Numbered from the stretch's first letter, positions 30,411 through 64,000 are shown. The stretch: 64,000 nucleotides of DNA from Candidatus Zixiibacteriota bacterium (GCA_014730345.1 WJIJ01000051.1:3592-67591); one strand, 5' to 3'. The notes: generated from the letters alone by a model not told the origin. Numbers and translations: made by a program.

Positions 30411-30411
30411 T

Positions 30412-30855: not shown

Positions 30856-30859
30856 AAAA

Positions 30860-31444: not shown

Positions 31445-31472
31445 TTTAAATTTTATAATACAGGGATTAATT

Positions 31473-33059: not shown

Positions 33060-33077
33060 GAAAGGTTAATACTATAA

Positions 33078-34696: not shown

Positions 34697-34712
34697 ATTT
34701 ATCGAGGCTTAA

Positions 34713-35865: not shown

Positions 35866-35906
35866 GATTTGCGAAAACGTTTAATAATTGAAATAAGGAG
35901 TTAAGC

Positions 35907-37448: not shown

Positions 37449-37470
37449 TACCTATTCAGGAGGTTTTCAA

Positions 37471-39873: not shown

Positions 39874-39909
39874 TTTTAGACCGACTAAGAATAGGAGAAA
39901 ATTGACAAT

Positions 39910-41613
39910 ATGGAATTCCTGGGTACGATACTGCTTAAAGAAGGACTGGTTAAACAGGAACAATTGGATGATGCTTTAGCGAGACAGAAAGGATTAGGTA
40001 AAAGACTCGGAGAAATTCTTATCTCCGATGGTTTAATAACCCAGGAAAATCTCGTCGATGCTCTTTCTATTCAACTCGGAATAGAGAAGGTTGGAGAAGA
40101 GGATCTTGCCCGGATAGCCCGGGAAGTTGTCGAAGTTATCCCCGAATTTTTCGCCAGGGAATATCATGTAATTGCCATCGAACGCGACGAGGACACTTTA
40201 AAAGTGGCCATGACCGATCCCGAAGATATCGTCGTGCTCGATAATCTCCATAAAATGACCAGCTACCGGATAGTGCCGGTCCTTGGTCCTCAGTTCCATA
40301 TCGATGATTCTATCGAAAGGCATTACCGGGAAATACGGGCAACCGGCGAGGTTACCGAGGCTTTATCCGGCCTTGATTTCGTGGTTACCAGCGATGACCA
40401 GGAACTCGATGATGTCGATATCAACCAGCTTAAAAAAGAAATCGACGATGCTCCTATCGTAAAGCTGGTTAACCTGACTATCACCGAGGCGATCAAGAGC
40501 AGGGCGACTGATATACATATCGAACCCACTTTTGATTCACTCGTCATCCGCTACCGTATCGACGGCCATTTACAGGAGGTTATGACCGCTCCCCGTAAAT
40601 CCCAGATGGGAATCATCTCCCGCATTAAGATTATGGCTAATCTTAATATCGCCGAAAGAAGGCTTCCCCAGGACGGCCGTATTACCATAAAAATGCCGGA
40701 GAAAGAGGTCGATGTCCGCGTTTCCATTCTCCCCACGGTGAGGGGAGAAAAAGTGGTTATGAGGTTGCTGGAAAAAACCGGCTTTTCCTATTACCTTGAC
40801 AATCTCGGTTTCGATTCGGACATGCACGATATCTTTTTGAAATGGATTAAACAGCCTTACGGCATGGTAATCGTATCCGGCCCTACCGGTTCTGGTAAAT
40901 CAACCACGCTTCACGCGGCGCTGAATGAAATTAAATCCGAGGAGGATAATATAGTAACTGTAGAGGATCCGGTGGAGTATCAGATTGATGGCGTTGCCCA
41001 GGTTGCCACCGCCGATAAAATCGGTTTGACTTTCGGTTCGGCCCTGCGCCATATTCTACGCCAGGACCCGGATAAGATTCTCATCGGTGAGATACGCGAT
41101 AAAGAAACGGCGGATATCGCCGTGAAATTCGCTTTAACCGGTCACCTTGTTTTCACGACATTGCACGCTAACGATGCCCCATCGACCATTACCCGCCTTC
41201 TGGATATCGGCGTAGCGCCCTTTTTAGTCGGGTCATGCCTTAACCTGGTTATGGCCCAGCGGCTGGTCAGGACTATTTGCCCGCATTGCAAGGAAAGCTA
41301 TACTCCCACCCAAGAGGAATTGGATTCCCTCAAGGTGGATATTTCTAAGTATAATGGGCATAACTTCGTCAGGGCTAAAGGCTGCGTTCACTGCCGTAAC
41401 ACGGGTTACTATGGCCGGACAGGCATTTTCGAGATGCTCGAGTTGCGCCATCCGATCCGAAAACTTATATTCGAGGGAGCTGATCAGGATGCAATCAAAG
41501 ATAGGGCGATGGAATTGAATATGGTCAACCTTCGTGAAGCCGGCGCGCGCAAAGCTTTTCAGGGCAAGACAAGCATTGAAGAAGTATTAAGATCAACTAT
41601 AGAAGAGGATTAA
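39910..41613 (+). CDS. pilB: Type IV pilus assembly (extension) ATPase, GspE/PilB family
   Basis: N-terminal T2SSE_N-like domain. Walker A (GPTGSGKSTTL). Tetracysteine motif (CPHCK...CVHC). Length 567 aa. Confidence 0.93.
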   Translation: MEFLGTILLKEGLVKQEQLDDALARQKGLGKRLGEILISDGLITQENLVDALSIQLGIEKVGEEDLARIAREVVEVIPEFFAREYHVIAIERDEDTLKVAMTDPEDIVVLDNLHKMTSYRIVPVLGPQFHIDDSIERHYREIRATGEVTEALSGLDFVVTSDDQELDDVDINQLKKEIDDAPIVKLVNLTITEAIKSRATDIHIEPTFDSLVIRYRIDGHLQEVMTAPRKSQMGIISRIKIMANLNIAERRLPQDGRITIKMPEKEVDVRVSILPTVRGEKVVMRLLEKTGFSYYLDNLGFDSDMHDIFLKWIKQPYGMVIVSGPTGSGKSTTLHAALNEIKSEEDNIVTVEDPVEYQIDGVAQVATADKIGLTFGSALRHILRQDPDKILIGEIRDKETADIAVKFALTGHLVFTTLHANDAPSTITRLLDIGVAPFLVGSCLNLVMAQRLVRTICPHCKESYTPTQEELDSLKVDISKYNGHNFVRAKGCVHCRNTGYYGRTGIFEMLELRHPIRKLIFEGADQDAIKDRAMELNMVNLREAGARKAFQGKTSIEEVLRSTIEED

Positions 41614-41629
41614 TAGATAAGGAACGATT

Positions 41630-42883
41630 ATGCCGAGTTTTTCTTACATAGTCAAAGATAAGAACGGCACTCAACAGGACGGTATAATCCAGGCGGCCAG
41701 CCTGGACGCGGCTTTGAACAAACTTCGTGAAAAGGGCAATACAATAATATCCGTAAAGGATTACAAGGATGCTTCCGCCGTTGAGCAGGAAAGCCTGTTA
41801 GATAAGATAGGTTTGCTGATTTTTAAAATCCGCACCCATGTTCCTTTGAAAGTAATCGTGTTCTTTACCAGGCAATTAGCTACGATGTTCTCCGCAGGTT
41901 TAAATATCGAAAAAACTATTTCCCAACTGTTGATTGAAGAATCCAACAAGAAATTCAAGAAGGTTCTCGGACAATTAAACGCGGATATTAAAAAGGGATT
42001 ATCTCTTTCGGATGCCATGGAACGGCACCCCGGGGTTTTTTCTCCGCTGTACATCGCCCTGGTGAAATCCGGCGAGGTCTCCGGTACCTTGCACAGGGTG
42101 CTCGAGGAACTGGCAAACTACCTCGAATTCATCCAGGATACCCGCCGTAAAGTGATATCCGCGATGTACTATCCGGCCTTTGTTTTATTAATAACTTTCC
42201 TGATTGTCGCTGGTTTGATAATCTATGTTGTGCCTATATTCCAGGAAGTATACGCGCGGTTCAAAGCTGACTTGCCGCTTCCTACACAAATACTCATTCA
42301 TATAAGCGACACGGTGAGGAGCAATTTCATAGTAAGCGCGCTGATTGTGGCGGCATTCGTTGGTCTTATTGTGGTGATAAACCTTACATATACCGGCAGG
42401 CTGATATTTGACCGGGTCCGGCTTAAAGTACCGATTATAGGACAGCTCCAAATGAACTCCCTGATGAGCAAATTCTCCCGTACTTTCGGTATGCTTATGG
42501 GCGCGGGCGTGCCGGTGATTGACGCTATGAAACTTGTTTCGAGGGTAGTTGATAACTATGTAATTAAAATCGGGGTAAAAAATACGATCCGTTATATTAA
42601 GGACGGATACAGTATTTCGGCATCGATGAAGAAAAGCGCTGTATATCCGCCTACTCTGGTGTCCCTGGCTTCGACCGGCGAGGAAACCGGTGAAATAGAA
42701 AATATGTTCGCCAAAGCGGCCATTTTTTACGATAAACAGGTTGACGCGGTGGTCAGCAGGTTAACCTCGTTAATCGAACCGATGTTGATTGTTATTATCG
42801 CGACCGTAATCGGAACCATAATTATTGTGCTCTATTTGCCCGTATTCTACCTCGGAATGGTTATGAAGCGGGGTCTTAAGTAA
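41630..42883 (+). CDS. pilC: Type IV pilus platform protein, GspF/PilC family
   Basis: Two T2SF repeats and 3 TM segments. Length 417 aa. Confidence 0.9.
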   Translation: MPSFSYIVKDKNGTQQDGIIQAASLDAALNKLREKGNTIISVKDYKDASAVEQESLLDKIGLLIFKIRTHVPLKVIVFFTRQLATMFSAGLNIEKTISQLLIEESNKKFKKVLGQLNADIKKGLSLSDAMERHPGVFSPLYIALVKSGEVSGTLHRVLEELANYLEFIQDTRRKVISAMYYPAFVLLITFLIVAGLIIYVVPIFQEVYARFKADLPLPTQILIHISDTVRSNFIVSALIVAAFVGLIVVINLTYTGRLIFDRVRLKVPIIGQLQMNSLMSKFSRTFGMLMGAGVPVIDAMKLVSRVVDNYVIKIGVKNTIRYIKDGYSISASMKKSAVYPPTLVSLASTGEETGEIENMFAKAAIFYDKQVDAVVSRLTSLIEPMLIVIIATVIGTIIIVLYLPVFYLGMVMKRGLK

Positions 42884-43689: not shown

Positions 43690-46600
43690 ATGAAGAGACG
43701 CAGAGGGAGAAGAATATCTTTACTTATACTCGGATCTTTGGCTTTAATCGTATCCGTAATCCTCGCCGTCTTTTTCTTTACGGATCTTCCCGAGAAACAG
43801 GTTAACAACCTTCTTGATGTTCTCATAAGCGCGGAATCGGGGGTGGAAGTTCATATAGGTAACCTTAACCGCACATGGTGGGGAGAGCTGGAGCTTTTTG
43901 ATATTACCATCGATTACCAGAAGGGAGATACAACCTATCGTTTGGCGGAAGTAAAATCGTTATATACGGATTATTCCCTGATTGAATTTATACAGGGCAG
44001 GTTCGTAGTAACCAGCCTGATTATTAATGAACCAAGGATTTACCTGAAAAAAGACAAACAGGGAAACTTGATTTTCCCGGGCGGTAGTGAAAAAGGAGAT
44101 CCATCTGCCGGTATAGCTATTTTGCCGGGATTAATTTATGGAGCACAATATTTTGAACTTAATGAGGGTATGATTGAACTTTACGAACAGGATAACCGCA
44201 TTGATAGTTTGAATATCGCGGGAACCGCGCGGCGTCTTCCCCCGGACACTCTTTCGGCGAAAATTTACATGATGGATTTTGTCTATCCCCGCAAAGATTT
44301 TGAAGTTTCCAAGTTTACAACCGAGATCCGTTTTTCACCGGGCAAAATCGATTTCGACGATGTAAAACTGATAACCGGAAATTCCGATGCCCGCGGAAGC
44401 TTGAGTTTACTTCTTAGGGATACCCTGGAGTATTCATTTAATTTTAATGGTGATAATTTTTCATTCGAGGAGATGTCGCGTATAGCCGGAACCAAGTTGA
44501 GAGGGGATATCCAATACAAGATAACCGGCAACGGCAAAGGCGGGTTAATCCAGGGCGACGCCGTTTTGAATGGATACTTCTTCGAAAGGAAATTCGAGAA
44601 TGTACAGACCGGTTTCCGCTTTCAGGATAAAAAATTGTCGTTCCACAATGTCTCAGGGAAAATCTTCGGCGCTTCGGTTACCGGAGACGGGCGATTAAAC
44701 CTCGGCGTGAAACCGGAGGAGTACAGCGCGGATATACGTATAAAAGGATTTAATTTAAGCAATCTCGTATTCAATTCCCTCGATACCGAATTTAATGGAC
44801 AATTGCTCATCGACGGCCGGGGCTTTAATGATGATAATATGTATATGAACTTCAATGCCGACCTTGGTTTTACCCGTATAGAGACCTACCAGTTCGACAG
44901 CACCAGGGGAGAATTCGGTTTAAATGTCAAAAGGATTGATTTCGAGGATGGATGCCAGGCCTTTTACAAAAATACGGCTACTGAATACTCAGGGTTTATC
45001 GAGTATGGCGGGAATTTGGAGATAAAGGGTACCGCGGATTTCCGTAACCTCGATAATTTCGACGGGCAGATATTTCTTACGGATATCGGCGGAAGGGGAA
45101 ACGCGAGTTTCATCGCCGATGGGCTGACCGGGGATTTCAACCTGAACGCACGGTTTACCTCGGACTCGTGTCATATTTATGGGATATATACCCCTGACTT
45201 TGAGATGGATTTATCCCTGAACACTTTTGTTAATCATCCCATAGGTAAGGTCGATTTCGGCTGGAGCGGGGGAGATATATATACCCTCGGCGTCGAAAGG
45301 GTTGATGGATATACTGTTGTGGCGGGCGATTACACTTTTATAGATTCGGTCAATGTTGATTACCCCGCGGGGGACATGTTTTTCCAGGGCAAATATGACG
45401 GTACTCTCTTCCCCCCTCGATTGGCGATTGATTCCTCGGCGATTAGTTTTTTCGATAATAAACTTATCAATAACCAACAGATAAAGTTGCTGATAGGTGA
45501 GGAGGATGTTGAAATAACATCGATGATTTATTCCGTGAATTCGGGGCTTGCCAGCCTTGCCGGCATTATCGATTATGATGAAAACATGGATCTCGCTTTA
45601 ACATTGGATAGACTTGATATTTCTCCGTTTGCTTCCATAATAGATCCAGGCGACCGGTGGGATGGAATATTGTCCTGCAATATCATGGCTGGTGGGAATT
45701 TCGAGAATCCCAGCTACGTAGGAGCTATTGAGATAGATGGTTTTGGATACAGATTTTACGCGCTGGGCGATATCGACAGTAAATTCAGCTACAGGGATGA
45801 ATCCCTTATAATTGATTCCTTCAATCTTACTGATTCCCTCGAGAACATTACTGCCTCCGGCTACATCCCTATTGATTTATCACTGGCCGAAACCGAAACG
45901 CGAATACCGGACACGACCTTCTTTGTTAATTTCAAGGCCAGCGGCGAACAGCTGAACGTGGCTACCATTTTTATTCCGCAGATAGAATACCTGTTCGGTT
46001 CATTCAATGCCAGCATGATCATAGACAATACAGTTTACAAACCGACATTCAATGGAAGACTGCGGATGGAGGATGGCGTTCTTAAAGTCCAGGATTGGGT
46101 TGAACCTATCTACGGATTAGAATGTGATATAATACTTCAGGATAAAGAAATCAAAATCGAGAAAGCTGAGGGGCATTTCGAGTACGAGGATAATCGCCGA
46201 CAGTCGATTTTCCAAAAGTTGTACTCGGCATTATTCAGTACTGAAGACCGGAGAGGACGGGTTGGAGTTAATGGAAGTATTGACGTTAGATCCCTCGACA
46301 ATTTCGATTACTCGCTGGATGTAACCGGCAAAGATATACCATTAGTACATGAACTCTATGATATATCCGCTATTGTAGATATCAACGCCGAGGTTACCGG
46401 TACCACACCGCCCCTTGTAACCGGCGATGTCGAAGTTGTCCAGTTTATTTACAATGAACCATTTGTCTCTTCTGGTTCGGACCTCCTTGATGTTGAGCCT
46501 GTGCATGCCATTGATGAAAATATGTGGAATCTTGACCTCGACATATACGCGGATAATAATATCTGGGTAATAAATCCGGATATGGAAGCTGAATTCGAAG

Positions 46601-47289
46601 GCGAGGTAAACCTCACGAGACGACTGGGGCTCTACCGTGTTCAAGGTGAGATTGGAGTTATCAGGGGACGGTACTATCTACCGACGTTGGTAGATTTCAA
46701 GATAGACGAAGGGCAGATATTATTTAACGATCCCGAGTTTGTTTCCTTTAATTTCGTTGATCCTGAGCTTAATATACTTGCTTCAAAACGGATTTACCAG
46801 AGTGACGCGGACGAAAAACTAATCGAACTCAGGGTAAGCGGTGAACTTTCTGAACCAACCCTGTCTCTTTCTTCAGGAGAGGATAGCCAGCAGGAAATAT
46901 TAGAGTATCTTGCTTTTAGAAGGAGTTTGGATGGTTCTTCAACCGATTCGATCGGTACCGATAATTCTCTCGGCGAACGGGGAGTGGGGTTGTTCAGCGA
47001 TTTGATTAGCAGGCAGATTAAATCACAAGCGCGGCAAACCCTGGGGGTTGAAACGCTGGAAATTCAACCTTCCGAGAGCGGCGGTTTTGACCTTTCACAG
47101 ACGCGTATAGCGGTTGGAAAGTATATATCACCGAGTGTTTATCTGAAATATTCAACCAAGCTGTCAACGGCTTCCGGGCAGGAAATCGCCGCCGAATATC
47201 GTTTGAACCGGAATTTTTCACTCGAAGCCAAGACTGATGAAGATAACCTGTACCATGTCGACTTCAATTTTAAATTAGAGTTTAAATGA
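43690..47289 (+). CDS. tamB: TamB-like translocation and assembly module protein (N-terminal signal anchor, long beta-rich body, DUF490-like C-terminus)
   Basis: Length 1199 aa. N-terminal anchor (ISLLILGSLALIVSVILAVFFF). Amphipathic beta-strand C-terminal region. Immediately followed by an Omp85 gene. Confidence 0.65.
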   Translation: MKRRRGRRISLLILGSLALIVSVILAVFFFTDLPEKQVNNLLDVLISAESGVEVHIGNLNRTWWGELELFDITIDYQKGDTTYRLAEVKSLYTDYSLIEFIQGRFVVTSLIINEPRIYLKKDKQGNLIFPGGSEKGDPSAGIAILPGLIYGAQYFELNEGMIELYEQDNRIDSLNIAGTARRLPPDTLSAKIYMMDFVYPRKDFEVSKFTTEIRFSPGKIDFDDVKLITGNSDARGSLSLLLRDTLEYSFNFNGDNFSFEEMSRIAGTKLRGDIQYKITGNGKGGLIQGDAVLNGYFFERKFENVQTGFRFQDKKLSFHNVSGKIFGASVTGDGRLNLGVKPEEYSADIRIKGFNLSNLVFNSLDTEFNGQLLIDGRGFNDDNMYMNFNADLGFTRIETYQFDSTRGEFGLNVKRIDFEDGCQAFYKNTATEYSGFIEYGGNLEIKGTADFRNLDNFDGQIFLTDIGGRGNASFIADGLTGDFNLNARFTSDSCHIYGIYTPDFEMDLSLNTFVNHPIGKVDFGWSGGDIYTLGVERVDGYTVVAGDYTFIDSVNVDYPAGDMFFQGKYDGTLFPPRLAIDSSAISFFDNKLINNQQIKLLIGEEDVEITSMIYSVNSGLASLAGIIDYDENMDLALTLDRLDISPFASIIDPGDRWDGILSCNIMAGGNFENPSYVGAIEIDGFGYRFYALGDIDSKFSYRDESLIIDSFNLTDSLENITASGYIPIDLSLAETETRIPDTTFFVNFKASGEQLNVATIFIPQIEYLFGSFNASMIIDNTVYKPTFNGRLRMEDGVLKVQDWVEPIYGLECDIILQDKEIKIEKAEGHFEYEDNRRQSIFQKLYSALFSTEDRRGRVGVNGSIDVRSLDNFDYSLDVTGKDIPLVHELYDISAIVDINAEVTGTTPPLVTGDVEVVQFIYNEPFVSSGSDLLDVEPVHAIDENMWNLDLDIYADNNIWVINPDMEAEFEGEVNLTRRLGLYRVQGEIGVIRGRYYLPTLVDFKIDEGQILFNDPEFVSFNFVDPELNILASKRIYQSDADEKLIELRVSGELSEPTLSLSSGEDSQQEILEYLAFRRSLDGSSTDSIGTDNSLGERGVGLFSDLISRQIKSQARQTLGVETLEIQPSESGGFDLSQTRIAVGKYISPSVYLKYSTKLSTASGQEIAAEYRLNRNFSLEAKTDEDNLYHVDFNFKLEFK

Positions 47290-49181
47290 CCCGCTTTTTA
47301 TATAGATTCTGTCTCTTATTGGCATTTTTACTCCTTTTGCCTTCTATTGCGCATCCGCAGGAATTGCACAGCAAAACACGCGGATTTGTGATAATCGATG
47401 ATATTAAAGTTAACGGCAATAAGGCATTGAGTAGTGGAACCATAAAATCACAACTGACCGTCAGCCAGAACCGCTGGTACAATATTATCCATAAAAAGGA
47501 ACGGCTGACCGACCGGGTTATCGAATATCAGAAATCCCTGGTGGATTCTCTTTATCACGTAAACGGATTTTTGGATGCTTCCAGCGAAATCAAAATCAAT
47601 TCCGCAGATAAAGAAAACCATGTTCAGGTGGAAGTGAATGTGGTGGAAGGCCCTCGAACATTTTTAAAATCAGTCAATTTCCGGGGAGGGGTAGAGGATT
47701 TAAATGACAAGACGGCTGATATTGTAAGGAATTTAAGAACTGGAAGCCCGTATAATCATATGCTTGTCTCCGAGATAGCTTATCGCATTCGGAGCTTATA
47801 TACTAAAAATGGTTATGCGTATTGCAGGGTTAGACCCGTTGCCGAATTCTCTGATGACGCGACTGAAGTTTCAATAACTATAAATATTGAGGCCGGGGAC
47901 CTGACAACTTTCGGAGAGATTAATATCGAAGGTTTGGATTTTACCGAGCCGGAGGTAGTACGCAGGGAAATCCAGTTTAAAAAAGGAGATATATATAATG
48001 AAGAAAGTATGTATGAGAGCCATCGTTTTCTCTATAATTCCGGTTTATTCAACTATGTTTCCATGAACCCGGTTTACTATCCCGAGAAACAGGAGCCGCC
48101 GGATATCAACATCTCTCTCAAAGAGCGCAAACCAAACTACTTGAACCTGAGGACGGGCGCCGGCCAGGACAGGCAACGCGACCTTACTTTGAACGCTTCC
48201 GCTGAATACGGCAACCGCAACATGTTCGGCACAGGCCGTAAAATAGGCCTTGGAGTGATTTCATCGTTCCAGGTTATCACCAGGCAAGCTAACTTTAAAA
48301 ACCAGTTTATCTTTTCATATACCGAACCCTGGATATTTTTCACACGCATGCCCCTGGAGATTAAGTTGACTTACGAACCGAATACTCTGAGCGCAACCCA
48401 GGATTATCAGTATGACCGTTATTCCGCCGCCTTCACCTTAACCCGCGAGTTGTCACCGGAAACGGAATTCAAATTCACCGAGGATTTTGAATCGATTAAC
48501 ATCCATGACCTCCAGGGAGACCAGGAAGAAATATTCCGCGCTGAACAGGAAATTCGATTGCGCAGGAAGTTTATCTCATCGTTCCGTACCGATAAACGCG
48601 ATAATATACTAATGCCCACCCGCGGTTACTTCACCCAGATATCATTTGAGTACATCGGAGGAATTCAGGGCGGCGATATCGACCTGGTCAAGCTTCATTT
48701 TTCATGGAACCGCTACCAGGTATTTAAAAAGTCCAATGTTTTCGCCGGCAGGCTCCAATTGGATTGGCTAAAGGAATTCGGGGAAACCGAGATAGTTCCT
48801 ATCGAGGACAGGTTTTTCCTCGGCGGGGCGTCAACCATAAGAGGATACCGGGAAAACCAGCTTGGTCCCAAATTCGAAAGCGCCGATTCCATACAATCAT
48901 TAATAGGGAATCCCAAGGGAGGAAAACTGGCGATACTCGGTAATTTTGAACTCCGACGTTCTCTGTTCTGGAGATTTGGCGGTTCAACTTTTATCGACGT
49001 GGGAAACCTGTGGGAGGATCCCGAAGAGTTCAAGCTTGAAGATTTCCGGGTTACAGCGGGATTGGGATTGCAGTTTTTTACTCCCATCGGACCTATAAGG
49101 GCGGATTATGGAATTAGAGTGATTCGCGCCGGTGATGAATCCGGCGGCGCGTATCATTTTAGTATTTTATATATATTTTAA
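47286..49181 (+). CDS. tamA: Omp85-family outer-membrane protein assembly factor (TamA/BamA-like): POTRA domains plus a 16-strand barrel
   Basis: Signal peptide. POTRA-like repeats. C-terminal barrel with a conserved RGY/F motif (GASTIRGYRENQLGP) and a terminal aromatic residue. Length 631 aa. Confidence 0.8.
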   Translation: MTRFLYRFCLLLAFLLLLPSIAHPQELHSKTRGFVIIDDIKVNGNKALSSGTIKSQLTVSQNRWYNIIHKKERLTDRVIEYQKSLVDSLYHVNGFLDASSEIKINSADKENHVQVEVNVVEGPRTFLKSVNFRGGVEDLNDKTADIVRNLRTGSPYNHMLVSEIAYRIRSLYTKNGYAYCRVRPVAEFSDDATEVSITINIEAGDLTTFGEINIEGLDFTEPEVVRREIQFKKGDIYNEESMYESHRFLYNSGLFNYVSMNPVYYPEKQEPPDINISLKERKPNYLNLRTGAGQDRQRDLTLNASAEYGNRNMFGTGRKIGLGVISSFQVITRQANFKNQFIFSYTEPWIFFTRMPLEIKLTYEPNTLSATQDYQYDRYSAAFTLTRELSPETEFKFTEDFESINIHDLQGDQEEIFRAEQEIRLRRKFISSFRTDKRDNILMPTRGYFTQISFEYIGGIQGGDIDLVKLHFSWNRYQVFKKSNVFAGRLQLDWLKEFGETEIVPIEDRFFLGGASTIRGYRENQLGPKFESADSIQSLIGNPKGGKLAILGNFELRRSLFWRFGGSTFIDVGNLWEDPEEFKLEDFRVTAGLGLQFFTPIGPIRADYGIRVIRAGDESGGAYHFSILYIF

Positions 49182-55679: not shown

Positions 55680-57995
55680 ATGGGTTACCCGGCTCTCATA
55701 GCGTTGTTTTTTTTAGCCGCCGGAATTCTGGGGGCATACTATATCCCCCTCCCGGCGGAAATCCCATTATTCGCCGGCGGGTTATCGATTGTCTTCGGCC
55801 TGGTCTTTTTGTATTTGGGAAAAAGAGCATTGCTTATGGTCTCTACCGCATTGCTTTTGGTGAGTCTTGGGTTTTTCCGAAGTCATCTATTCACCGGGCA
55901 ATTCCCTACTAATCATATCTCCAGCTTCACTTCACTGGATTTCAAGGTTCGTATCTCCGGCGAGGTCATTCTTGACCCCGACATTCGAGATTACTATACC
56001 TACCTGACCCTGAAAGCGGACAGTTTATATTTACAGCAGGGCGCAATACCTGTAAATGGGCGTGTACTGGTTAAAATACGGCCAGCTACATCGCGTTTTC
56101 AATATGGAGATTTAATATCGGTTTATGGATATTTGAATAATCCGCCCCGTTCCGGTAATCCGCTTTTATTCGATTACCGCGGTTACCTCCATCGAAAAGG
56201 CATCGCCGGCTACATGTACACCAAAAACCAGCGCGATATTAAACTGCTGGTTCCCTCCGAAGGATTCGATTTCCTTTCCGGCGTAGTGCTTCCAGCTCGA
56301 AAATACCTGATTGATATTTTTCATCAACTCCCCACACCCGGCAACGGTCACTTGCTTGCTGGATTCCTGCTCGGCGAAAAGAGAGGAGTACCTCCCGATA
56401 TAAGGGAATCTTTTATAGCGTCAGGAACAATGCATCTCCTGGCAGTTTCCGGCAGTAACCTCGCGCTTGTAAGTACGATTTACCTTTTGCTGGTTTATTA
56501 CATACCAGTAAGCAGGCGGTGGAAATTGATCGGCAGTATCCCGTTTATAATCATATTCTGTTTTATGACCAACAATGAACCTTCGGTGGTAAGGGCGGCG
56601 GTGATGCTTCTACTGGGAGTGATAGCCTATATGAGTAGCCGCAGGATTGAGCCAATCAACCTGTTCTGCTCCGCGGCGCTGATTATACTCGCCGTTTATC
56701 CTCTTTGGCTTTTCGAGGTCGGCTTTCAGCTTTCATTCGCGGCTGTTGCCGGGATCGTTTTGTACACCAGGTCGAAGTTTTATAATCCACGTCCCGGCGC
56801 CAATATTTTCATAAAAAGCTGGCGATTGATCATCCACGCCGCCTTCGTCAGCGCGGCGGCGTTTTTATTCACTGCTCCCGTAGTAGCTTATCATTTCAAC
56901 CGGCTCGCCGTTTATTCCATATTAGCTAATATCCCCGCCGCCGGTGCGGTTTTTTTTGTTACCGCCGCCGGAACTTTACTCGCTTTCTTCAATCCCATCG
57001 GAGGGTTTGTAAGGGATATTCTGCTTTGGGTTACCGACCTTTCGGTAACGTTAATGAGGATAATCGCCGATTTCTTCTCATCGATTCCTTATGCGGATCC
57101 TGATGTCCCTTCGCCGGATATTTTGACTATTATAGCCATTTATCTCGCGTTGACATCATTGATGATTATCCGCTGGAATAAGAGAATGAGCGTCTATCTT
57201 CTTATCGGGTTACTTATTGTTTTGAATGTAAAAGCATGGGCTGAAGTGCCTTATTTTGGTGATGATGATTACCATGTCGAGTTTTTGGATACCGGTTTCT
57301 CACATTCTCTGCTGATTCGTCAGGATACCCGCTGGAATACTCTTATTTATCATGGCGATGGCCGCAGTTTTCAATCAGTAGGCAGCTGGGCTTTAAAACC
57401 CTATTTGTTGAAACTGGGTTTTATGAAATTTGATAACCTGATTCTAACACACAATTCCAAAGACGCGTTGTGGGGAATAGATATTTTACTGAAGGAAAAT
57501 CTTGTTGAGAATATCCTTTTACCGCCCGATTCGGGTTTGGTCATGGCTATCAGGAATTATGGATATCATGGCGAAATAAAGGAAATTATTTCCGGCGATT
57601 CTCTGATTTCGCCTTCAGGCGTTAAATACTTCATCTTTAAACCCGATATAAATTTAAGAGAAAAACAAAGCTCCAAATCGAGTTATGCTGTTCAAATTAA
57701 AATTTTGAACAGCAATATTATGTTTACTGCTGATAACGAGATTAAGCTAAGTAACCAGATGCTAAGTGATAACGAAATAATTCAAATTGGCTATGGTTTT
57801 GCTGATAAAAGTAGCGCCGGAAATTCGGATGGTGGTTCATACTTTGTAATATCTGGTCAGCCATTTCTCTACTGGAAGGAAAAATCAGCGGCTTTTGATG
57901 ATTCTGGAGAATGTCGGAGATTTTTTAAAACGAGATACCGCGGCGCTGTTTTATTTGAAATTGATGATAAAGGCGTTCATCCTGTCGAAGGATAA
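55680..57995 (+). CDS. comEC: DNA internalisation-related competence protein ComEC/Rec2
   Basis: DUF4131-like N-terminus. ComEC core (GEKRGVPPDIRESFIASGTMHLLAVSGSNLALV). Polytopic. Degenerate beta-lactamase-like C-terminal domain. Length 771 aa. Confidence 0.88.
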   Translation: MGYPALIALFFLAAGILGAYYIPLPAEIPLFAGGLSIVFGLVFLYLGKRALLMVSTALLLVSLGFFRSHLFTGQFPTNHISSFTSLDFKVRISGEVILDPDIRDYYTYLTLKADSLYLQQGAIPVNGRVLVKIRPATSRFQYGDLISVYGYLNNPPRSGNPLLFDYRGYLHRKGIAGYMYTKNQRDIKLLVPSEGFDFLSGVVLPARKYLIDIFHQLPTPGNGHLLAGFLLGEKRGVPPDIRESFIASGTMHLLAVSGSNLALVSTIYLLLVYYIPVSRRWKLIGSIPFIIIFCFMTNNEPSVVRAAVMLLLGVIAYMSSRRIEPINLFCSAALIILAVYPLWLFEVGFQLSFAAVAGIVLYTRSKFYNPRPGANIFIKSWRLIIHAAFVSAAAFLFTAPVVAYHFNRLAVYSILANIPAAGAVFFVTAAGTLLAFFNPIGGFVRDILLWVTDLSVTLMRIIADFFSSIPYADPDVPSPDILTIIAIYLALTSLMIIRWNKRMSVYLLIGLLIVLNVKAWAEVPYFGDDDYHVEFLDTGFSHSLLIRQDTRWNTLIYHGDGRSFQSVGSWALKPYLLKLGFMKFDNLILTHNSKDALWGIDILLKENLVENILLPPDSGLVMAIRNYGYHGEIKEIISGDSLISPSGVKYFIFKPDINLREKQSSKSSYAVQIKILNSNIMFTADNEIKLSNQMLSDNEIIQIGYGFADKSSAGNSDGGSYFVISGQPFLYWKEKSAAFDDSGECRRFFKTRYRGAVLFEIDDKGVHPVEG

Positions 57996-57997
57996 AA

Positions 57998-59194
57998 ATG
58001 CTGGATACAAAAGATAAAAGCGATAAAGGTTTTAAGGGGAATCTGGATACGGTTTCCCTCCTCGATGTTTTCCAACTCCTTTTCAGCGGTAAAAAATCCG
58101 GTATGCTCGAGCTTACTGATGGGGACTCCAGTAAAAAAGTATACCTCAAAACTGGGATGATAGTCGGCGCGGAATCCTCAGAGAACGAAGATATGCTCGG
58201 AACTCTTCTGCTAAAAAGAGGCAAGATCAAAAAGATGGACCTGAATCGCGCGCTCTCCCTGCATAAAAGTTCCGGAAAAATGCTCGGACAGGTTTTAATA
58301 GAAATGGGGCTCTTCTCGGATGCTGAGATTTGCAGTTGCCTTAAAATGCAGGTTGAGGAAATCATTTATAGCCTGTTTGGATGGAGCGCCGGTGAGTTTA
58401 TCTTCCATGAAGGCAAATCGCCGAATAAATCCAACTATGAAATCGCCCTCAATCCCATGAATGTTATCATGGAAGCTACCCGCCGGATGGATGAATGGAA
58501 CGAGATGAAAGAAAACCTCCCGCCGGAAAACTATATTCTCTATGGCGCGGTACCCGAAAGAATAGATGACGAGGAAATACGCTTGAGCAGGGAGGAGTTT
58601 GGGGTGCTCACGCTGATCGATAGTAAACGTTCATTCAAGCAGGTATTGGTAGACAGCCCCAGCGACAGATTTTCCACTTCTAAAGCTATCCATCGGTTTA
58701 TTTCCCTTGGTTTGATAGACGCCTACAAGCCTGAAGGAGCTAACGAAGGCGGGGATGTAGGCCTTGAAGCCGTTCTCCGAGATTTCCTGAAATTCCATCG
58801 CGATATTTATGATATAGTTTTTCTGGTTTTTACCGATTATATGGGTGAAGAGGGTATAAACATCCTGGAAAGGATTTTCAAGATTTGTAAAACGGATCAC
58901 CAGGTACTGGATCGTTTTTCCGGTTCCGGGGGGAAAAATGTGAATTATGATAAAATGGTTGCCGAAGCCCTTACCTTGCCGGAAAATGCTATTATTCACA
59001 AGGTAGCTAACTCCTTTTCGGCCCTCTCCCAAAGATATTTAAGCGCCGTAAGGGAATACCTGGGCGCGAATGTATTCTCGCAAATTATGGGAAAATTGAG
59101 AAAAGCGAATACAAGATATGTCGAAAGCAGAAGGCAGTCATTGATTAATTATGGTATAGAAGACGATGTTTTTCATCTACTGTATTTAAAATAG
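57998..59194 (+). CDS. DUF4388-domain protein (PATAN-associated N-terminal domain), probable motility/polarity regulator partner
   Basis: N-terminus (GNLDTVSLLDVFQLLFSGKKSGMLELTDGDSSKKVYLKTGMIVGAES) matches the DUF4388 pattern. 3-nt spacing from comEC. Confidence 0.6.
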   Translation: MLDTKDKSDKGFKGNLDTVSLLDVFQLLFSGKKSGMLELTDGDSSKKVYLKTGMIVGAESSENEDMLGTLLLKRGKIKKMDLNRALSLHKSSGKMLGQVLIEMGLFSDAEICSCLKMQVEEIIYSLFGWSAGEFIFHEGKSPNKSNYEIALNPMNVIMEATRRMDEWNEMKENLPPENYILYGAVPERIDDEEIRLSREEFGVLTLIDSKRSFKQVLVDSPSDRFSTSKAIHRFISLGLIDAYKPEGANEGGDVGLEAVLRDFLKFHRDIYDIVFLVFTDYMGEEGINILERIFKICKTDHQVLDRFSGSGGKNVNYDKMVAEALTLPENAIIHKVANSFSALSQRYLSAVREYLGANVFSQIMGKLRKANTRYVESRRQSLINYGIEDDVFHLLYLK

Positions 59195-59205
59195 CCGGGA
59201 TAGTA

Positions 59206-59598
59206 ATGAACTGTAAGAAAAAAACAATCTTCTTAATTACAGCTTTACTTTTCAGCGTCTTGCTGGAATTCAATAACGCGTATGCCCAGTTCGGTAATTC
59301 GCCGAATGCGATTAGTTATATTGACCTTGCCATTAGAACTGTTTGGTTGATCTGCTCGGTTCTTGGATTTTTAACCGCTTTTCGCATAAGCAGGGCTTTC
59401 AGAAAGGGAAGGCTTGCGTTGCCCTGGATATTGTTTTCCTCGGCCTTCGCGGTTTTCGCTGTTTCCTCTATAATCTCTTTCGCCGAACTTTTTAAATTTT
59501 TAAATGGTTGGACTACCATCTCCAACGGCGGTTTCGCCGCCGGGGTTTTAGTTTTAATAGTTGCTGGATATCTATATAAAAAGGCCGTTATTCGTTAA
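59206..59598 (+). CDS. Small hypothetical membrane protein (signal peptide plus 3 TM)
   Basis: A 130-aa hydrophobic ORF in operon context. Confidence 0.45.
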   Translation: MNCKKKTIFLITALLFSVLLEFNNAYAQFGNSPNAISYIDLAIRTVWLICSVLGFLTAFRISRAFRKGRLALPWILFSSAFAVFAVSSIISFAELFKFLNGWTTISNGGFAAGVLVLIVAGYLYKKAVIR

Positions 59599-59607
59599 AA
59601 TTTTAAT

Positions 59608-60483
59608 ATGCCTGCTCCAGACACAGATTTAAATGATAGAATCGAGAAATGTCTTGCGATACTGAAGAAGGACCCGGATTCCCAGATATTCGCATCCCTC
59701 GCCGAATGCTATCGAAAAAAAGGCGATCTCGATAAAGCCTATGAAATCGGTCTTAATGGTATTCAACGCCATTTCGAGTATGGCACCGGCCATTTGGTAA
59801 TGGCCAAAATAAATCTCGATAAAAAAGACTATCGCTTAGCGCAGGAAGAATTGAACCTTGCGGAACGTTACATGGGGCGTACCCGCTCGATTGATTATCT
59901 CCAATGCGAGATCCTCCTGAGGGGAGGCGAATTAAAAAAGGGTGAGATACTTCTTTCACAGTTGAAAATTACAGAGCCGCAGAACCCGGCCATAAGATTC
60001 CTTACAGGATTACTAAATAAAGCAAGGGAACAGAACAAAAAACGTCCCCATGCCTTTGATTCTACCGACGATTCCGAAGAAAATGAGGTTAACGGCTATG
60101 CCGGAGATGCCGATAATTTAAAGGATGAGAAGATATCGGTGGAATTTATGGTAAAAACCATCGGTTCGTATCAAGGCGTTAATTACGTACTGGCTCTGGA
60201 CTATGACAACAACGTGCTTTCCGCCTATCCGCCGGCTGAAGAGTGTATGGATGATCATCTGCACTTCTGCAGGATAATCAGCCAGGGATTAAATCATTGT
60301 CTTCCTTCGGTTGGATTCGGTAAGATGGGAAGCTGTTTGGTGGAAACCGATAAACGTAAATATTTCCTGAAAGACGCGGGGAGCTTTTATTTGTTGCTTG
60401 ATACCGATGACAATTCAAATTTCGGATTTCTGAGTATGAAACTCGCTGAAATGCTTCCGTATCTGGAAAACAAGGGGCAATGA
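59608..60483 (+). CDS. TPR-repeat protein with a C-terminal roadblock/LC7-like domain
   Basis: N-terminal TPR-like helices (FASLAECYRKKGDLDKAYEIGLNGIQRHFEYGTGHLVMAKINL). C-terminal roadblock-like region (GVNYVLALDYDNNVLSAYP). Confidence 0.55.
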   Translation: MPAPDTDLNDRIEKCLAILKKDPDSQIFASLAECYRKKGDLDKAYEIGLNGIQRHFEYGTGHLVMAKINLDKKDYRLAQEELNLAERYMGRTRSIDYLQCEILLRGGELKKGEILLSQLKITEPQNPAIRFLTGLLNKAREQNKKRPHAFDSTDDSEENEVNGYAGDADNLKDEKISVEFMVKTIGSYQGVNYVLALDYDNNVLSAYPPAEECMDDHLHFCRIISQGLNHCLPSVGFGKMGSCLVETDKRKYFLKDAGSFYLLLDTDDNSNFGFLSMKLAEMLPYLENKGQ

Positions 60484-60484
60484 C

Positions 60485-61378
60485 GTGGAACGAAAAGAGA
60501 TTATAAAGATATCGATTATCGCTTTGGTCCTTGGGGTTCTTACTTCCTTTTTCTATCCCCAGGGCGAAGACTTAAGCATGCCCTGGCCTGTCCTGTTCAA
60601 TTTCATTTTAGAGATGTTTTACTATGCCCTGATTATCTCCATGTTTGATAACAGCACGGGATTTGTGGAGCATCTTGTTTACGCCGGGGGAAGCTTTATA
60701 TTCCGCGTCATCACTTCGCTTGTCTTCGCCGCCGCGATAACTACAGCCCATGGTATTAGTTTCACCGAATCGATCAGACTCGGAATAGTCGGCTACCTGC
60801 CGCAGGTATTTTCGATGATTCTCGTCTCGCCATGGGTACTGCTGTCGTTTCTTAAGGACAGTTACAAGGAGAAAGTCCGGAGTATATCCAAACCTGACGT
60901 GCCTGTTTACGAAAAGAAAGTGCGTAAGCAGATGGAAGAAATTCAGCAGGAAAAAGAAAGAATTTTAGAGCCGGAAAAACCTGTCGAAGGCGATATGTCC
61001 GTCGAGGGCGTACTGGATTACGTATCCGGCGGCAGGGGCGTGGTTGGAAGCATGATATCCTCGCGTGAAGGGCTGTTGCTGGCATACAGGTTCAGGACCC
61101 AGAAAAAAGCGGAGGAATGGGCCGCGCGGCTCGAAAAAATCTTTGTATCCAACGATTCAATGATGCATCATTATGGAGTGGGCATGCTTAAAAATGCCGA
61201 ATTCCTCGCCGGCGATTTTAACATTGGAATTTATGATGTCTCGGGCATAAGGCTGATTGTAATTGTCCAGGCATCAGCGACAGACAATCTAATTAGCATT
61301 CGCATCGCCCGCGCTGTAGAGATGCTTGGCAAGGTAGTTAAATCCAGATATGGGAATGTAATCGCGTCTGAAGTTTGA
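60485..61378 (+). CDS. Polytopic membrane protein with a C-terminal roadblock/LC7 domain
   Basis: Four N-terminal TM helices. C-terminal roadblock-like region (VVGSMISSREGLLLAYRF...IRLIVIVQASATDN). Confidence 0.55.
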   Translation: MERKEIIKISIIALVLGVLTSFFYPQGEDLSMPWPVLFNFILEMFYYALIISMFDNSTGFVEHLVYAGGSFIFRVITSLVFAAAITTAHGISFTESIRLGIVGYLPQVFSMILVSPWVLLSFLKDSYKEKVRSISKPDVPVYEKKVRKQMEEIQQEKERILEPEKPVEGDMSVEGVLDYVSGGRGVVGSMISSREGLLLAYRFRTQKKAEEWAARLEKIFVSNDSMMHHYGVGMLKNAEFLAGDFNIGIYDVSGIRLIVIVQASATDNLISIRIARAVEMLGKVVKSRYGNVIASEV

Positions 61379-61402
61379 TAAGGATGTGCACGGAGGATAA
61401 TA

Positions 61403-61762
61403 ATGTATGATGTTCTGGCGGAACTGAATAAAACCTCGGGTATAAAGGGAAGTATGATGGTCGGCGCCGATGGCATTATAATCGCCGCGGACCTCGATAA
61501 TGAACTCGAGGATGATACCGTAGGGGCTCTGGCGGCTTCCATAATCGCCGGTATCAAAAAAGCTGTGAATAGACTTGACCGCGGTCAGCTTAATCATGTT
61601 ATGATTGAAGCGGAGCATGGAAAAGTTTTTCTTAGTGAAAATCAGTTTGGTATACTTGTAGTAATTGCCGACAACGAAGTCAATATCGGATTAATCAGGT
61701 TGGAGATGAGAACCGCTTTAAGCCGAATTCAGAACTCCACCGTAATCACCGGCAAATCTTAA
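61403..61762 (+). CDS. Roadblock/LC7-domain protein (MglB/MglC-like)
   Basis: The 119-aa sequence ([18 protein letters not shown]...[22 protein letters not shown]) fits the roadblock consensus. Confidence 0.8.
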
Positions 61763-61781
61763 GGGGAGAACAGGTGATAAG

Positions 61782-63731
61782 ATGGTAACAATAAATTACG
61801 CTTTCCGGGAAGTAGTCAGTAAAATCGTATATTACGGTCCGGGGCTTTCGGGCAAAACAACGAATTTGCATTATGTTTTCCGAAAAGTCCCACCCCAGAC
61901 CAGAGGGGAGATGATTTCCCTGGCAACTGAAGCCGACCGGACCCTGTATTTCGATTTCCTCCCCATCAATCTCGGGAGTATCCAGGGGTTCGCCACCAAG
62001 TTCCAATTGTACACTGTTCCCGGGCAGGTTTTCTATAATGCTACCCGGAAACTCGTTTTGAGGGGCGTCGATGGCCTGGTGTTCGTTGCCGATTCCCAAC
62101 TTGCAAAAATGGATGAAAACCTTGAGAGTCTGAATAACCTCAAGGAAAACCTCGTTGAATATGGTATCAATTACGATGAAATACCTCTTATCATCCAGTA
62201 TAACAAGCGCGATCTCCCCAATATCGCTACCATCGAACAGCTTGAAGCCGCCCTTAATCCGGCAGGAGCGCCCTATTTCGAAGCCGTAGCTTCTAAAGGG
62301 GAAGGAGTTTTTGATACACTTAAAGCTATCTGCAAAATCGTTCTCGACAGAGCCCGCAGTGAACACGGTGTTACCGCTACCGAGGAGGTCCCGGTCGGAC
62401 AGATGCAATCCGCCGAAAACCAGGCGCAGGGTTTAACACCATCGAGTCTCGATGACTCCGCCCCGGCATTGCAACCTCCCACTCAAACACTCGATGATGA
62501 TAAAGATGAAAACGAAGATACACTAACTCCCGGTTCACAGCAAACCTCGGCCCCGGAACCTGAACCGGTAAAACCTGTTCAGCAAGAACCTCCGGCACAG
62601 GCGCCTCCTCAGAAAACATCGTCGACACAGGAATCTGCCCCGCAGGAACCCCCGGCGCAGAAAGACCCGAATGTATATGAATTATCTGTAGATGAGCCCG
62701 GTGAACAGTCTCCTGCTCCGGCCGAAGAAGCAAAAGAAACGCCTATTGCCGGGCCATCTGAACCAGAAAAAACTCCCGAAACGCCGCTTGAATCTCAACC
62801 GGAGAAGGAAAAAACCGCGGAAACACCCTTGGCGGCGTCAAGTGAGAACGAAAAATCGTCGCCGTCAAACGACGTTGTTCCGCCAAACACACCTGACACT
62901 GCAGGTTTCCGTCCGGATGTCCATGTACTGGATGATTCTGATTCAGATACCAAACAGCCCGCCGATGATAACGCCCTTGATTCCACAACGGACAACAAGA
63001 TTCACCAGGTCAATATCGGCCTGGATGATTTCCAGACCGATACCATTAAATCCGAAGAAATGAACGCCGCCGAATCCGACCAGACACCGGCGCCGGAAGA
63101 GGAACACACCGAGAAATCGGAGATTGATAATCTTGAAACAGAAGCGGATGCTTCACCAAAGAAGTCCAAGCCATTTATCCCCGGTTTCGATTTTAGCGAG
63201 GAAGATGATAGCCCGCCGGGCGGTGGCTCAATTGGCGAACAAAACACCGCTTTCGAACAGCCGACGGCATCATCAACGCCTAAGGAATCCGAAGTTCCTG
63301 AAGGACCAGAGCAGGATATTACAAATCATCAATTACCACCCGAAAAGCCCGCGGAGGAAGCAATAAACCAGAAACTGCCTCCGGAGCCTCCGGTTTCAGC
63401 AAAACCAGAAGTTCAAAATGATAATCAGCCGCCCGCTTCCGGGTACTCATCGCTTGCCGATGATATCCTCCAGGATGTGGAGCAATCGGCCGATATTTCC
63501 CATGATATTCAATCAAGCGAGGCTGACACGGAAGCAGATGATTTAATCGGGAATACTGAAAAGAGCGTTAAGAAGGACGAAAATATAGATAAAGCGGAAG
63601 AACCAACCGATGAATCCGAACAGGAAGATGGCTACAAACCAAAGATGGATGGCATGAAAAAACGCAAAAAAGAGAAGAAATCCTTGTTTGGATGGTTTAA
63701 GAAATTAGGCCGGTCCAAAGGAGGTGAATAG
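61782..63731 (+). CDS. mglA: MglA-family Ras-like GTPase with a ~450-aa low-complexity Pro/Glu/Ser-rich C-terminal extension ending in a basic amphipathic tail
   Basis: The first ~195 aa are near-collinear with M. xanthus MglA ([16 protein letters not shown]; [10 protein letters not shown]; [10 protein letters not shown]; [11 protein letters not shown]; [10 protein letters not shown]). The remaining ~450 aa have no stop and consist of PEP/Q-rich then D/E-rich low-complexity sequence, ending [24 protein letters not shown]. Confidence 0.85.
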
Positions 63732-63734
63732 AGA

Positions 63735-64000
63735 TGAGCGAGAGTACCGTAATTTATGAGAACGATGTAAAGCAGATAGACAAGCTGATGGCCCGGCTTA
63801 TTTCGGAAGCGGAAGCAAAATGCGCGCTTTTAGTCGATAAGGACGGAAGGCTAATAACCCGCCAGGGATTTACAAATACGCTTGATACTACTGCTCTTGG
63901 GGCGCTACTCGCGGGAAGTTTCGCTTCCACTAAAGAGATAGCCCGCCTTGTTGGCGAACCTGAATTTTCAGTTTTGTTCCATCAGGGCAAAAAGGACCAT
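63735..64000 (+). CDS. mglB: MglB GTPase-activating protein (roadblock domain), 3' truncated by the window edge
   Basis: The first 88 aa match M. xanthus MglB (ALLVDKDGRLITRQGFTNTLDTTALGALLAGSFASTKEIARLVGEPEF). 3-nt spacing after mglA. Confidence 0.85.

Follow-up and report, generated by a model that had tools for sequence, protein, structure and literature searches.

A conserved gene array of Zixibacteria encodes a candidate membrane-confined MglA/MglB switch alongside type IV pilus motor genes

The last six kilobases (positions 57,998 to 64,000) of a 64,000-nucleotide stretch of DNA from Candidatus Zixiibacteriota bacterium (GCA_014730345.1 WJIJ01000051.1:3592-67591), hereafter the window, carry seven genes that include the Ras-like GTPase MglA and its partner MglB. 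The same seven genes recur in the same order throughout the phylum, where they run directly into genes for the motor of the type IV pilus (T4P). MglA itself is extended and ends in a predicted membrane-targeting helix, and three further roadblock-domain proteins are encoded beside it. Combining these observations, we lean modestly towards the view that Zixibacteria possess an MglA/MglB switch that sits in one array with T4P motor genes, is confined to the membrane and controls the adjacent pilus motor. This picture draws on sequence, structure prediction and gene order, and the organisms themselves are known almost solely through metagenome-assembled genomes (MAGs). Such a membrane-bound variant of the known polarity switch appears to be undescribed: literature searches on Zixibacteria with MglA, on Zixibacteria T4P or motility, and on an MglA membrane-targeting helix returned no description of the array, the extended MglA or two roadblock fusion proteins that we report below.

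MglA and MglB are the model for a Ras-like switch that defines the leading and lagging cell poles, and the MglA of Myxococcus is a soluble, single-domain protein. To our knowledge, almost everything understood about the pair comes from Myxococcus, and the exchange factor RomR/RomX is restricted to certain lineages. MglB is the GTPase-activating protein (GAP) of MglA, and in Myxococcus MglA-GTP brings in PilB via the TPR protein SgmX (PMC11580455). The Bdellovibrio MglA binds a TPR protein as well, Bd2492 (PMC3983030). The Zixibacteria array comprises the following genes, with the basis of each assignment in parentheses:

57998..59194, + strand: g1, PATAN (DUF4388/PatA_N) protein of 398 amino acids (aa), its C-terminal ~230 aa uncharacterised (Pfam PF14332)
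59206..59598, + strand: g2, small membrane protein of 130 aa (hydropathy and K/R pattern)
59608..60483, + strand: g3, TPR-roadblock fusion of 291 aa (AlphaFold2 (AF2) model, Foldseek, hhalign, and PF03259 in homologs)
60485..61378, + strand: g4, roadblock protein with four transmembrane (TM) helices, 297 aa (AF2, Foldseek, hhalign)
61403..61762, + strand: g5, free roadblock/LC7 protein of 119 aa (Pfam Robl_LC7)
61782..63731, + strand: g6, extended MglA of 649 aa (phmmer to M. xanthus MglA)
63734..64000, + strand: g7, MglB, first 89 residues in a frame open to the window end (NCBIfam MglB and the ortholog in a related locus, L001)

A sequence-only reading of the window had already proposed this module. 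Its gene identities (a DUF4388 protein, a small membrane protein, TPR-roadblock and 4-TM-roadblock proteins, a further roadblock protein, an extended MglA and MglB) stand up to Pfam, profile-profile comparison, AF2 with Foldseek, and phmmer. So does the tight spacing it described: all seven open reading frames (ORFs) lie on the + strand, and the gaps from g1 to g7 are 11, 9, 1, 24, 19 and 2 nt. From this 1–24 nt spacing we infer that g1 to g7 form one transcription unit and are co-transcribed. Shine-Dalgarno-like purine runs lie 5' of g1, g4, g5, g6 and g7. A scan for consensus promoters and terminators was uninformative, with counts close to shuffled expectation and no site inside any intergenic gap.

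To place the array in its phylum, we scanned one genome per species with a profile of the g3 family, which found 182 relatives, and fetched the best 80 with 10-kb flanks; hidden Markov models from five loci were then run on all ORFs of 87 loci, and our counts of gene order come from these. Every locus long enough (74/74) contains all seven core genes, with order and strand unchanged. The remaining 13 of the 87 are cut by contig ends, and none deviates in gene order. Since the order is identical in all 74 sufficiently long loci, the grouping is not due to chance, and the co-conservation on which the sequence-only reading depended holds across Zixibacteria. Median gaps within the array range from -20 to 106 nt across loci.

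Downstream, the array continues into the pilus motor. A pilB gene (MshEN plus T2SSE domains) lies directly 3' of mglB in 66/66 loci with enough DNA, followed by pilT in 55/59 and pilC in 55/55; in loci that we inspected individually, a PilS-type kinase comes after pilC. In L030, L031, L038 and L040, the fetched flank 3' of pilB, which again follows mglB, showed neither pilT nor pilC. The order PATAN, small membrane protein, TPR-roadblock, TM-roadblock, roadblock, MglA, MglB, pilB (then pilT and pilC) is thus fixed across the phylum, and the link to the pilus is stronger than the sequence-only reading, which had cited a pilus cluster 15 kb away, had supposed.

Nearly all of these relatives carry a Zixibacteria label, and nearly all of their genomes are metagenome-assembled. 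Many loci (L013–L015, L019, L021–L023 and others) belong to automated bins labeled 'uncultured Ignavibacteria/Ignavibacteriales'. We doubt these labels, because the MglA C-terminus of L021 ('Ignavibacteriaceae') is almost identical to that of L020 ('Zixibacteria').

The proteins of the array differ in how well they are conserved. Mean pairwise identity is highest for the MglA GTPase domain (76%), followed by MglB (73%), g5 (65%), the TPR half of g3 (58%), the PATAN protein g1 (49%), g4 (31–35%), and the roadblock half of g3 and g2 (30% each). The gradient from MglA through MglB and g5 to the TPR domain fits a scheme in which g5 and the TPR domain touch the conserved GTPase or the motor.

MglA consists of three parts:

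61782..62366, + strand: GTPase domain, residues 1-195 (phmmer, motifs)
62367..63653, + strand: acidic low-complexity linker, residues 196-624, 429 residues (composition)
63654..63731, + strand: basic amphipathic C-terminal tail, predicted membrane-targeting helix (76/76 orthologs)

Residues 3-193 align without gaps to M. xanthus MglA at 60% identity (phmmer E 1.3e-76). Besides the P-loop GxxxxGK[ST] and the guanine-specificity motif NKxD, group 1 MglA proteins are recognized by an intrinsic arginine finger (R53 in M. xanthus), by a catalytic Gln in the TVPGQ switch II and by a Thr that replaces the Asp of the Ras DxxG motif. The window protein has the P-loop GPGLSGKTT and the motif NKRD, and its intrinsic-Arg segment and 'YTVPGQ' align with 'ETDRTLFFDF' and 'YTVPGQ' of M. 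xanthus. Among orthologs, the P-loop GPG.[SC]GKTT is present in 76/76 and NK[RQ]D in 73/76, while the intrinsic Arg (DRT) and the catalytic Gln of TVPGQ occur in all 76. Judged by its motifs, this is a catalytically complete MglA of the group 1 type. A 220-aa ORF on the opposite strand (61746-62408, - strand) overlaps the region encoding the GTPase domain; it is almost certainly spurious because the + strand holds a highly conserved gene.

Because of its C-terminal extension, the protein departs from the ~195-aa single-domain form of MglA. All 76 complete orthologs from the array are extended, to total lengths of 313–649 aa with a linker of ~100–430 residues and an extension of 120–450 residues overall, and the window copy is the longest. 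Its linker is rich in E, P, D and S and carries a net charge of -75. We found no tandem repeats in it and reject repeat expansion as the cause of its length. Between 62000 and 63700, GC content rises to 0.51, GC skew is negative and AT skew reaches +0.29; we attribute this skew anomaly at 62–63.5 kb to the E/P/D/S-rich linker and not to a foreign insert. The linker is otherwise unconserved, but short motifs shared with the L001 ortholog lie at 63150-63200 and 63010-63050, one pair being KPFIPGFDF in the window and KPFIPGFDI in L001 and the second having the L001 form QVSMGMEDFQAT. Most other orthologs carry a P-x-MAPSL-[KR][KR] motif immediately preceding the tail. Such conserved short motifs may be docking motifs.

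The tail occupies the extreme C-terminus of 76/76 orthologs, with the consensus KKRGFFKRLFGIK. Its preservation beyond a linker whose length varies tells us that the long mglA ORF is genuine and that selection maintains the tail. Like the membrane-targeting sequence (MTS) of E. coli MinD, KGFLKRLFGG (PMC5471200), it is a C-terminal basic amphipathic helix, and its consensus core, RGFFKRLFGI, is alike at 8 of 10 positions. The window tail has a hydrophobic moment of 0.68 and the family a median of 0.52, compared with 0.21 for windows of the linker, and the last 20 residues hold a median of 8 K+R. Unlike in MinD, where the MTS is borne directly by a ParA/MinD ATPase, the Zixibacteria helix is carried by a Ras-like GTPase at the end of a long disordered linker. 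By analogy with MinD, the tail would bind the membrane. The sequence-only reading had proposed a membrane-tethered platform for MglA, and the predicted tail lends this idea independent support.

The mglB start lies 2 nt after the mglA stop, and mglB is present in every locus that reaches that far. The 89 residues encoded in the window match the NCBIfam MglB model at E 1.5e-9, below its full-length cutoff, and 78 of the 89 are identical to the L001 ortholog. The complete L001 protein in turn aligns with M. xanthus MglB from residue 7 to residue 160, a span that takes in the C-terminal helix, at E 3.7e-30. Judged through its L001 counterpart, the truncated window copy belongs to an ortholog of the known MglA GAP.

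Between the PATAN gene and mglA lie three genes for extra roadblock proteins, two of which are fusions with the following domains:

59620-60039, + strand: g3 TPR domain, residues ~5-144 (AF2)
within 59608..60483, + strand: g3 linker, residues 146-167 (AF2)
60139-60462, + strand: g3 roadblock domain, residues 178-285 (AF2, Foldseek, hhalign)
60491-60859, + strand: g4, four TM helices, residues ~3-125 (AF2)
within 60485..61378, + strand: g4 basic disordered linker, residues 129-169 (AF2)
61001-61351, + strand: g4 roadblock domain, predicted cytoplasmic, residues 173-289 (AF2, Foldseek)

The free roadblock protein g5 is detected directly by Pfam Robl_LC7 (E 1.7e-14, 53.8 bits, cutoff 23). Among solved structures, Asgard Roadblock proteins come closest to it (7f8m, E 4.4e-12), and MglB scores only E 0.05.

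For g3, the window protein alone gives weak TPR matches and no Roadblock match in Pfam. Among 59 full-length homologs at ~30% identity, TPR models match all 59 and PF03259 (Robl_LC7) matches 48. A profile of the g3 C-terminal part aligns with the g5 roadblock profile at 99.3% probability (hhalign, E 8.8e-21), while N-terminal controls match nothing. In the AF2 model (pLDDT 85), eight TPR-type helices lead through a disordered linker to an alpha-beta-beta-alpha-beta-beta-beta-alpha domain. Foldseek pairs this domain with Asgard Roadblock, Streptomyces Robl, LAMTOR2 and MglB at TMt 0.65–0.79, with solved Roadblock structures at 0.75–0.79. The TPR half is the most conserved part of g3 and holds 21 of its 24 invariant columns; its median net charge is 0.

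The roadblock domain of g4 is harder to see. Pfam Robl_LC7 scores it at a sub-threshold 18 bits (cutoff 23), and only 4 of 19 family members match at E<=0.1, which accounts for the 'hypothetical' labels on this family; NCBI calls the products of both g3 and g4 hypothetical proteins (candidate division Zixibacteria MAG). Profile-profile comparison links g4 to g5 at 96.5% probability (hhalign, E 8.5e-10) and to the g3 C-terminus at 98.4%. In the AF2 model (pLDDT 76.7), helices at residues 3-21, 36-54, 60-89 and 93-134 precede a domain whose top Foldseek matches are LAMTOR2, Asgard Roadblock3 and M. xanthus MglB (TMt 0.75–0.87, E down to 4e-7). Together, profile-profile comparison, a kind of check that the sequence-only reading had asked for, and predicted fold confirm the roadblock domains of g3 and g4.

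Across the g4 family, K+R sums to ~6.3 over the N-terminus, loop 2 and the flank after TM4, and to ~1.7 over loops 1 and 3. Because of this bias we place both termini of g4, and with them the roadblock domain, in the cytoplasm, as the sequence-only reading had anticipated. The TM region matches nothing in Pfam or NCBIfam. Five of its residues are invariant: E43 in TM2 (60611-60613), R74 in TM3 (60704-60706), P25, P106 and P116. The sequence pattern suggests that E43 and R74 form a buried ion pair or a functional site, beyond a mere anchor. Among 1.84 billion cluster representatives, the g4 family has 260 at E<=1e-3 and 106 at E<=1e-30, and the organism names attached to it are Zixibacteria only. 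Four species encode a soluble g4 ortholog of 135–171 aa that lacks the TM helices (L042:10840-11286, L045:2887-3294, L057:10837-11283 and L061:10705-11220). These are ~135–150 aa long in L042, L045 and L057, and the 171-aa ORF of L061 probably has an over-extended start. All four species still have the 3-TM protein g2 and the MglA tail.

The first gene of the array, g1, encodes a PATAN protein (Pfam PF14332, residues 13-168, E 3.6e-32, 111 bits, cutoff 25), and its orthologs occur in 82 related loci. The Pfam alignment covers 156 residues on a 122-position model, and the PATAN domain contains an insertion:

58181..58357, + strand: MshEN-type 'alpha-clip' insertion in the PATAN domain, g1 residues ~62-120 (NCBIfam NF053729)

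The insertion matches NF053729, the MshE-related c-di-GMP_motif, at E 8.5e-12 (44.7 bits, cutoff 38), and phmmer relates it to T. thermophilus PilF (E 6.4e-11) and to the N-domain of V. cholerae MshE (5HTL, E 2.8e-4), two proteins whose N-domains bind cyclic di-GMP. The MshEN motif consists of two RLGxx(L/V/I)(L/V/I)xxG(L/V/I)(L/V/I)xxxxLxxxLxxQ copies with 5 residues between them. Across the 82 orthologs, g1 keeps two 24-residue motifs and their 5-residue spacer, along with the Gly, Gln and hydrophobic positions. Where the consensus begins with the Arg of 'RLG', the window has Met; at this position motif 1 has Leu in 76/82 orthologs, and motif 2 has Q, K or R. From its sequence, binding of cyclic di-GMP (c-di-GMP) by g1 is plausible.

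That PATAN insertions are kin to the alpha-clip and to PilB-N1 was known already, and in Synechocystis the PATAN domain by itself localizes to the membrane and binds the N-terminal domain of PilB as well as that of PilC (bioRxiv 10.1101/2021.06.11.447907). PATAN genes have also been found occasionally near group 1 and 5 mglA and near mglB (PMC4316618).

The second protein, g2, always lies between the PATAN and TPR-roadblock genes and has no family match in Pfam or NCBIfam. A basic N-terminus with a signal-like hydrophobic segment is followed by three TM segments, and K/R-rich loops alternate with acidic ones according to the positive-inside rule, a pattern common to 81 orthologs. Aligning the g4 TM region to g2 with hhalign revealed no relationship. 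The MshEN-type insertion of g1, the MglA tail and the TM-less g4 proteins are all absent from the sequence-only reading.

How might these proteins work together? We propose that the tail of MglA, acting like the MinD MTS, attaches to the inner membrane, and that MglA would therefore be held there through its whole cycle. Roadblock proteins usually pair, as homo- or heterodimers, and the roadblock domains of g4, g3 and/or g5 could likewise associate into a membrane-anchored platform on which MglA is recruited or activated; g2 might join them in the membrane. This platform would serve as a guanine nucleotide exchange factor (GEF) or as a dock, as RomR/RomX does in Myxococcus, and MglB would switch MglA off. 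MglA-GTP would then reach the neighboring pilus motor by two routes: the strongly conserved TPR domain of g3, an effector in the manner of SgmX or Bd2492, and the PATAN protein, whose MshEN-type insertion may bring c-di-GMP input. In effect, the cell would control where (probably at a pole) and when its pili extend, and through this twitching motility and/or DNA uptake.

In this specific form, where a permanently tethered MglA is served by a membrane-integral heteromeric platform of the TM-roadblock, TPR-roadblock and free roadblock proteins that replaces RomR/RomX as exchange factor or dock and feeds the motor through PATAN and TPR proteins, the membrane-confined Ras-like cycle is a tentative proposal that we would not expect to hold in full. 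That the extra roadblock proteins provide GEF-like activation, an idea borrowed by analogy, is possible but doubtful. Likewise, we infer any GAP or GEF activity of these proteins, and polarity as such.

Several observations weigh against this reading of the array. The extra roadblock proteins match no known GEF, so that a GEF role is drawn by analogy only; their three domains are similar to one another (E 1e-10 to 1e-21) and far less so to MglB (~1e-4). Four species have a TM-less g4, so its membrane integration is not indispensable. Instead of anchoring MglA in the membrane, the tail could serve as a peptide ligand, for instance of the TPR domain. Binding of c-di-GMP by g1 is made uncertain by the missing 'RLG' Arg of motif 1 in 76/82 orthologs. 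Moreover, the window stops inside mglB, and a pilB-pilT-pilC run after it in this genome is extrapolated from its relatives. Finally, the switch has been studied in other phyla only, and motility and polarity are predictions for these organisms.

Other explanations deserve the same scrutiny, beginning with one suggested by the gene just upstream of the array:

55680..57995, + strand: comEC, DNA-uptake channel, 771 aa (Pfam Competence E 7.9e-57 and DUF4131)

T4P and ComEC are both required for transformation in many bacteria. The module could accordingly serve natural competence instead of motility, positioning or gating a DNA-uptake pilus together with ComEC. As the sequence-only reading noted, comEC is immediately upstream, its stop lying 2 nt before the g1 start; of the 66 loci with sufficient upstream sequence, 57 have it directly 5' of the PATAN gene, and pilB, pilT and pilC follow downstream. 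Yet adjacency to comEC is lost in the other 9 of the 66 loci, whereas adjacency to pilB never is; the median gap between comEC and the PATAN gene is 119 nt, above most gaps within the array; and the array showed no further competence gene such as comEA or dprA. We hold a role in competence instead of motility to be rather improbable, and a competence role is compatible with the membrane-confined switch that we favor, the two not being mutually exclusive. A different reassignment concerns the roadblock proteins. Myxococcus MglC is a roadblock paralog that binds MglB and RomR, acting on MglB and not on MglA, and the extra proteins might be MglC-like paralogs directed at MglB, or scaffolds, that sequester or localize the GAP or act as co-GAPs, with nucleotide exchange either spontaneous or driven by a protein encoded elsewhere. 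The readiness of roadblock domains to homo- or heterodimerize suits this idea, as does the conservation of g5, which is about that of MglB (65% vs 73%). Against it, g5 has no detectable similarity to MglC: none of its 29 PDB matches at E<=10 is a chain named MglC, the best is Asgard Roadblock, and identity of g5 with MglC is not supported. No in silico feature separates a GAP-side from a GEF-side role. We regard an MglC-like function as unlikely.

Two further alternatives concern membrane and tail. The array could be a transmembrane signaling system resembling the actinobacterial conservons (CvnA-D), in which a cue from the membrane or periplasm is sensed by the g4 and g2 TM domains and passed via a roadblock domain to MglA, with no polarity role. 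Conservons are likewise conserved operons that couple a membrane sensor protein, a roadblock protein and an MglA-family GTPase (PMC4316618), and the invariant charged E43 and R74 within the g4 TM helices, together with the conserved prolines, suggest a functional membrane domain. All seven proteins of the array, in contrast, are neither a histidine-kinase-like CvnA nor a DUF742 protein like CvnC, and with these two missing the array is not a conservon; its MglA is of the group 1 type, with the intrinsic Arg and an adjacent cognate MglB; and the g4 TM domain is dispensed with in four species. Conservon-like signaling is therefore very improbable. As for the tail, it might be a short linear motif that docks on a partner such as the g3 TPR domain or PilB. 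TPR domains commonly bind C-terminal peptides, and the TPR half of g3 is its best-conserved part (58% identity, 21/24 invariant columns). The g3 TPR domain is not acidic, with its median net charge of 0, whereas the tail is strongly basic and amphipathic and resembles the MinD MTS at 8/10 positions, so we give docking only a small chance.

A membrane-confined switch would relate to known systems in instructive ways. Like the Myxococcus and Thermus thermophilus MglA-MglB pairs, it combines a closely similar GTPase domain (60% identical to M. xanthus) with a downstream MglB whose L001 ortholog has the C-terminal helix, and it has a tie to T4P. Unlike them, its MglA is extended by a MinD-like tail, three more roadblock domains (one TPR-fused, one 4-TM-fused) accompany it, and the array lacks RomR, RomX, MglC, SgmX and FrzS while being contiguous, in relatives, with pilB-pilT-pilC. 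SgmX of M. xanthus and Bd2492 of Bdellovibrio offer a parallel to g3 as TPR proteins genetically linked to MglA and pilus function; g3 is short (291 aa, ~4 TPR units) and roadblock-fused, and the likeness is drawn from domain type and genetic linkage. The cyanobacterial PATAN regulators PixE, PixG and LsiR (PatA family) share with g1 a PATAN domain with a two-repeat alpha-clip insertion, of the kind also found at the N-terminus of PilB-type ATPases, and in relatives g1 is encoded near pilB and pilC. In contrast to them, g1 has no CheY-like receiver, bears an uncharacterised C-terminal region of ~230 aa, and is paired with MglA/MglB, not with a chemotaxis-like system.

Elsewhere in the window, at 29337-42883, lies a second T4P-type set, comprising a PilT-like ATPase, a pilin-like protein, PilM, PilO, a secretin, a PilB-like ATPase and a PilC-like protein, with an 800-aa Big_1/invasin-like protein between the secretin and the PilB-like ATPase. 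The sequence-only reading had cited a T4aP cluster 15 kb from the module. A T4P-type set is indeed present at 29.3–42.9 kb, and it is paralogous to the mglB-adjacent pilB-pilT-pilC: its PilB, PilC and PilT are 43%, 36% and 48% identical to those of the L001 set. For this reason we downgraded it as the direct target of the module and take the pilBTC genes that follow mglB in relatives to be the natural partner.

At 43690-49181, 9–14 kb 5' of the module, are genes for TamB (1199 aa) and a TamA-like Omp85/POTRA protein. In Bdellovibrio, Bd2492 is co-transcribed with tamAB, and Myxococcus SgmX has similar synteny (PMC3983030). The proximity here may be coincidence. We also considered an anti-phage defense system and rejected it, PADLOC giving 0 model matches at E<=0.01 for six array proteins.

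An entire phylum thus keeps one array in which a GTPase with its own predicted membrane anchor is encoded with three extra roadblock proteins beside its GAP, pilus motor genes and two plausible motor adaptors. The array documents two roadblock fusion architectures that are at present mostly annotated 'hypothetical' or 'TPR protein', and it offers a compact candidate system for asking how MglA is activated outside myxobacteria, by which route it reaches PilB, and whether roadblock proteins serve as bacterial membrane scaffolds or GEFs. Its nearest conceptual parallels are eukaryotic. In Ragulator (LAMTOR)-Rag, several roadblock-fold proteins, among them the LAMTOR2 that appears in our top Foldseek matches, are membrane-anchored and scaffold a small GTPase, and in Ras and Rho proteins the GTPase is tethered by a flexible C-terminal hypervariable region with a basic membrane-binding end, as predicted here. 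These are analogies only, with neither orthology nor lipid modification, the Zixibacteria anchor being a TM domain plus an amphipathic helix. If the membrane-confined cycle is true, it would be a bacterial counterpart of the logic of Ragulator-Rag and of the Ras hypervariable region.

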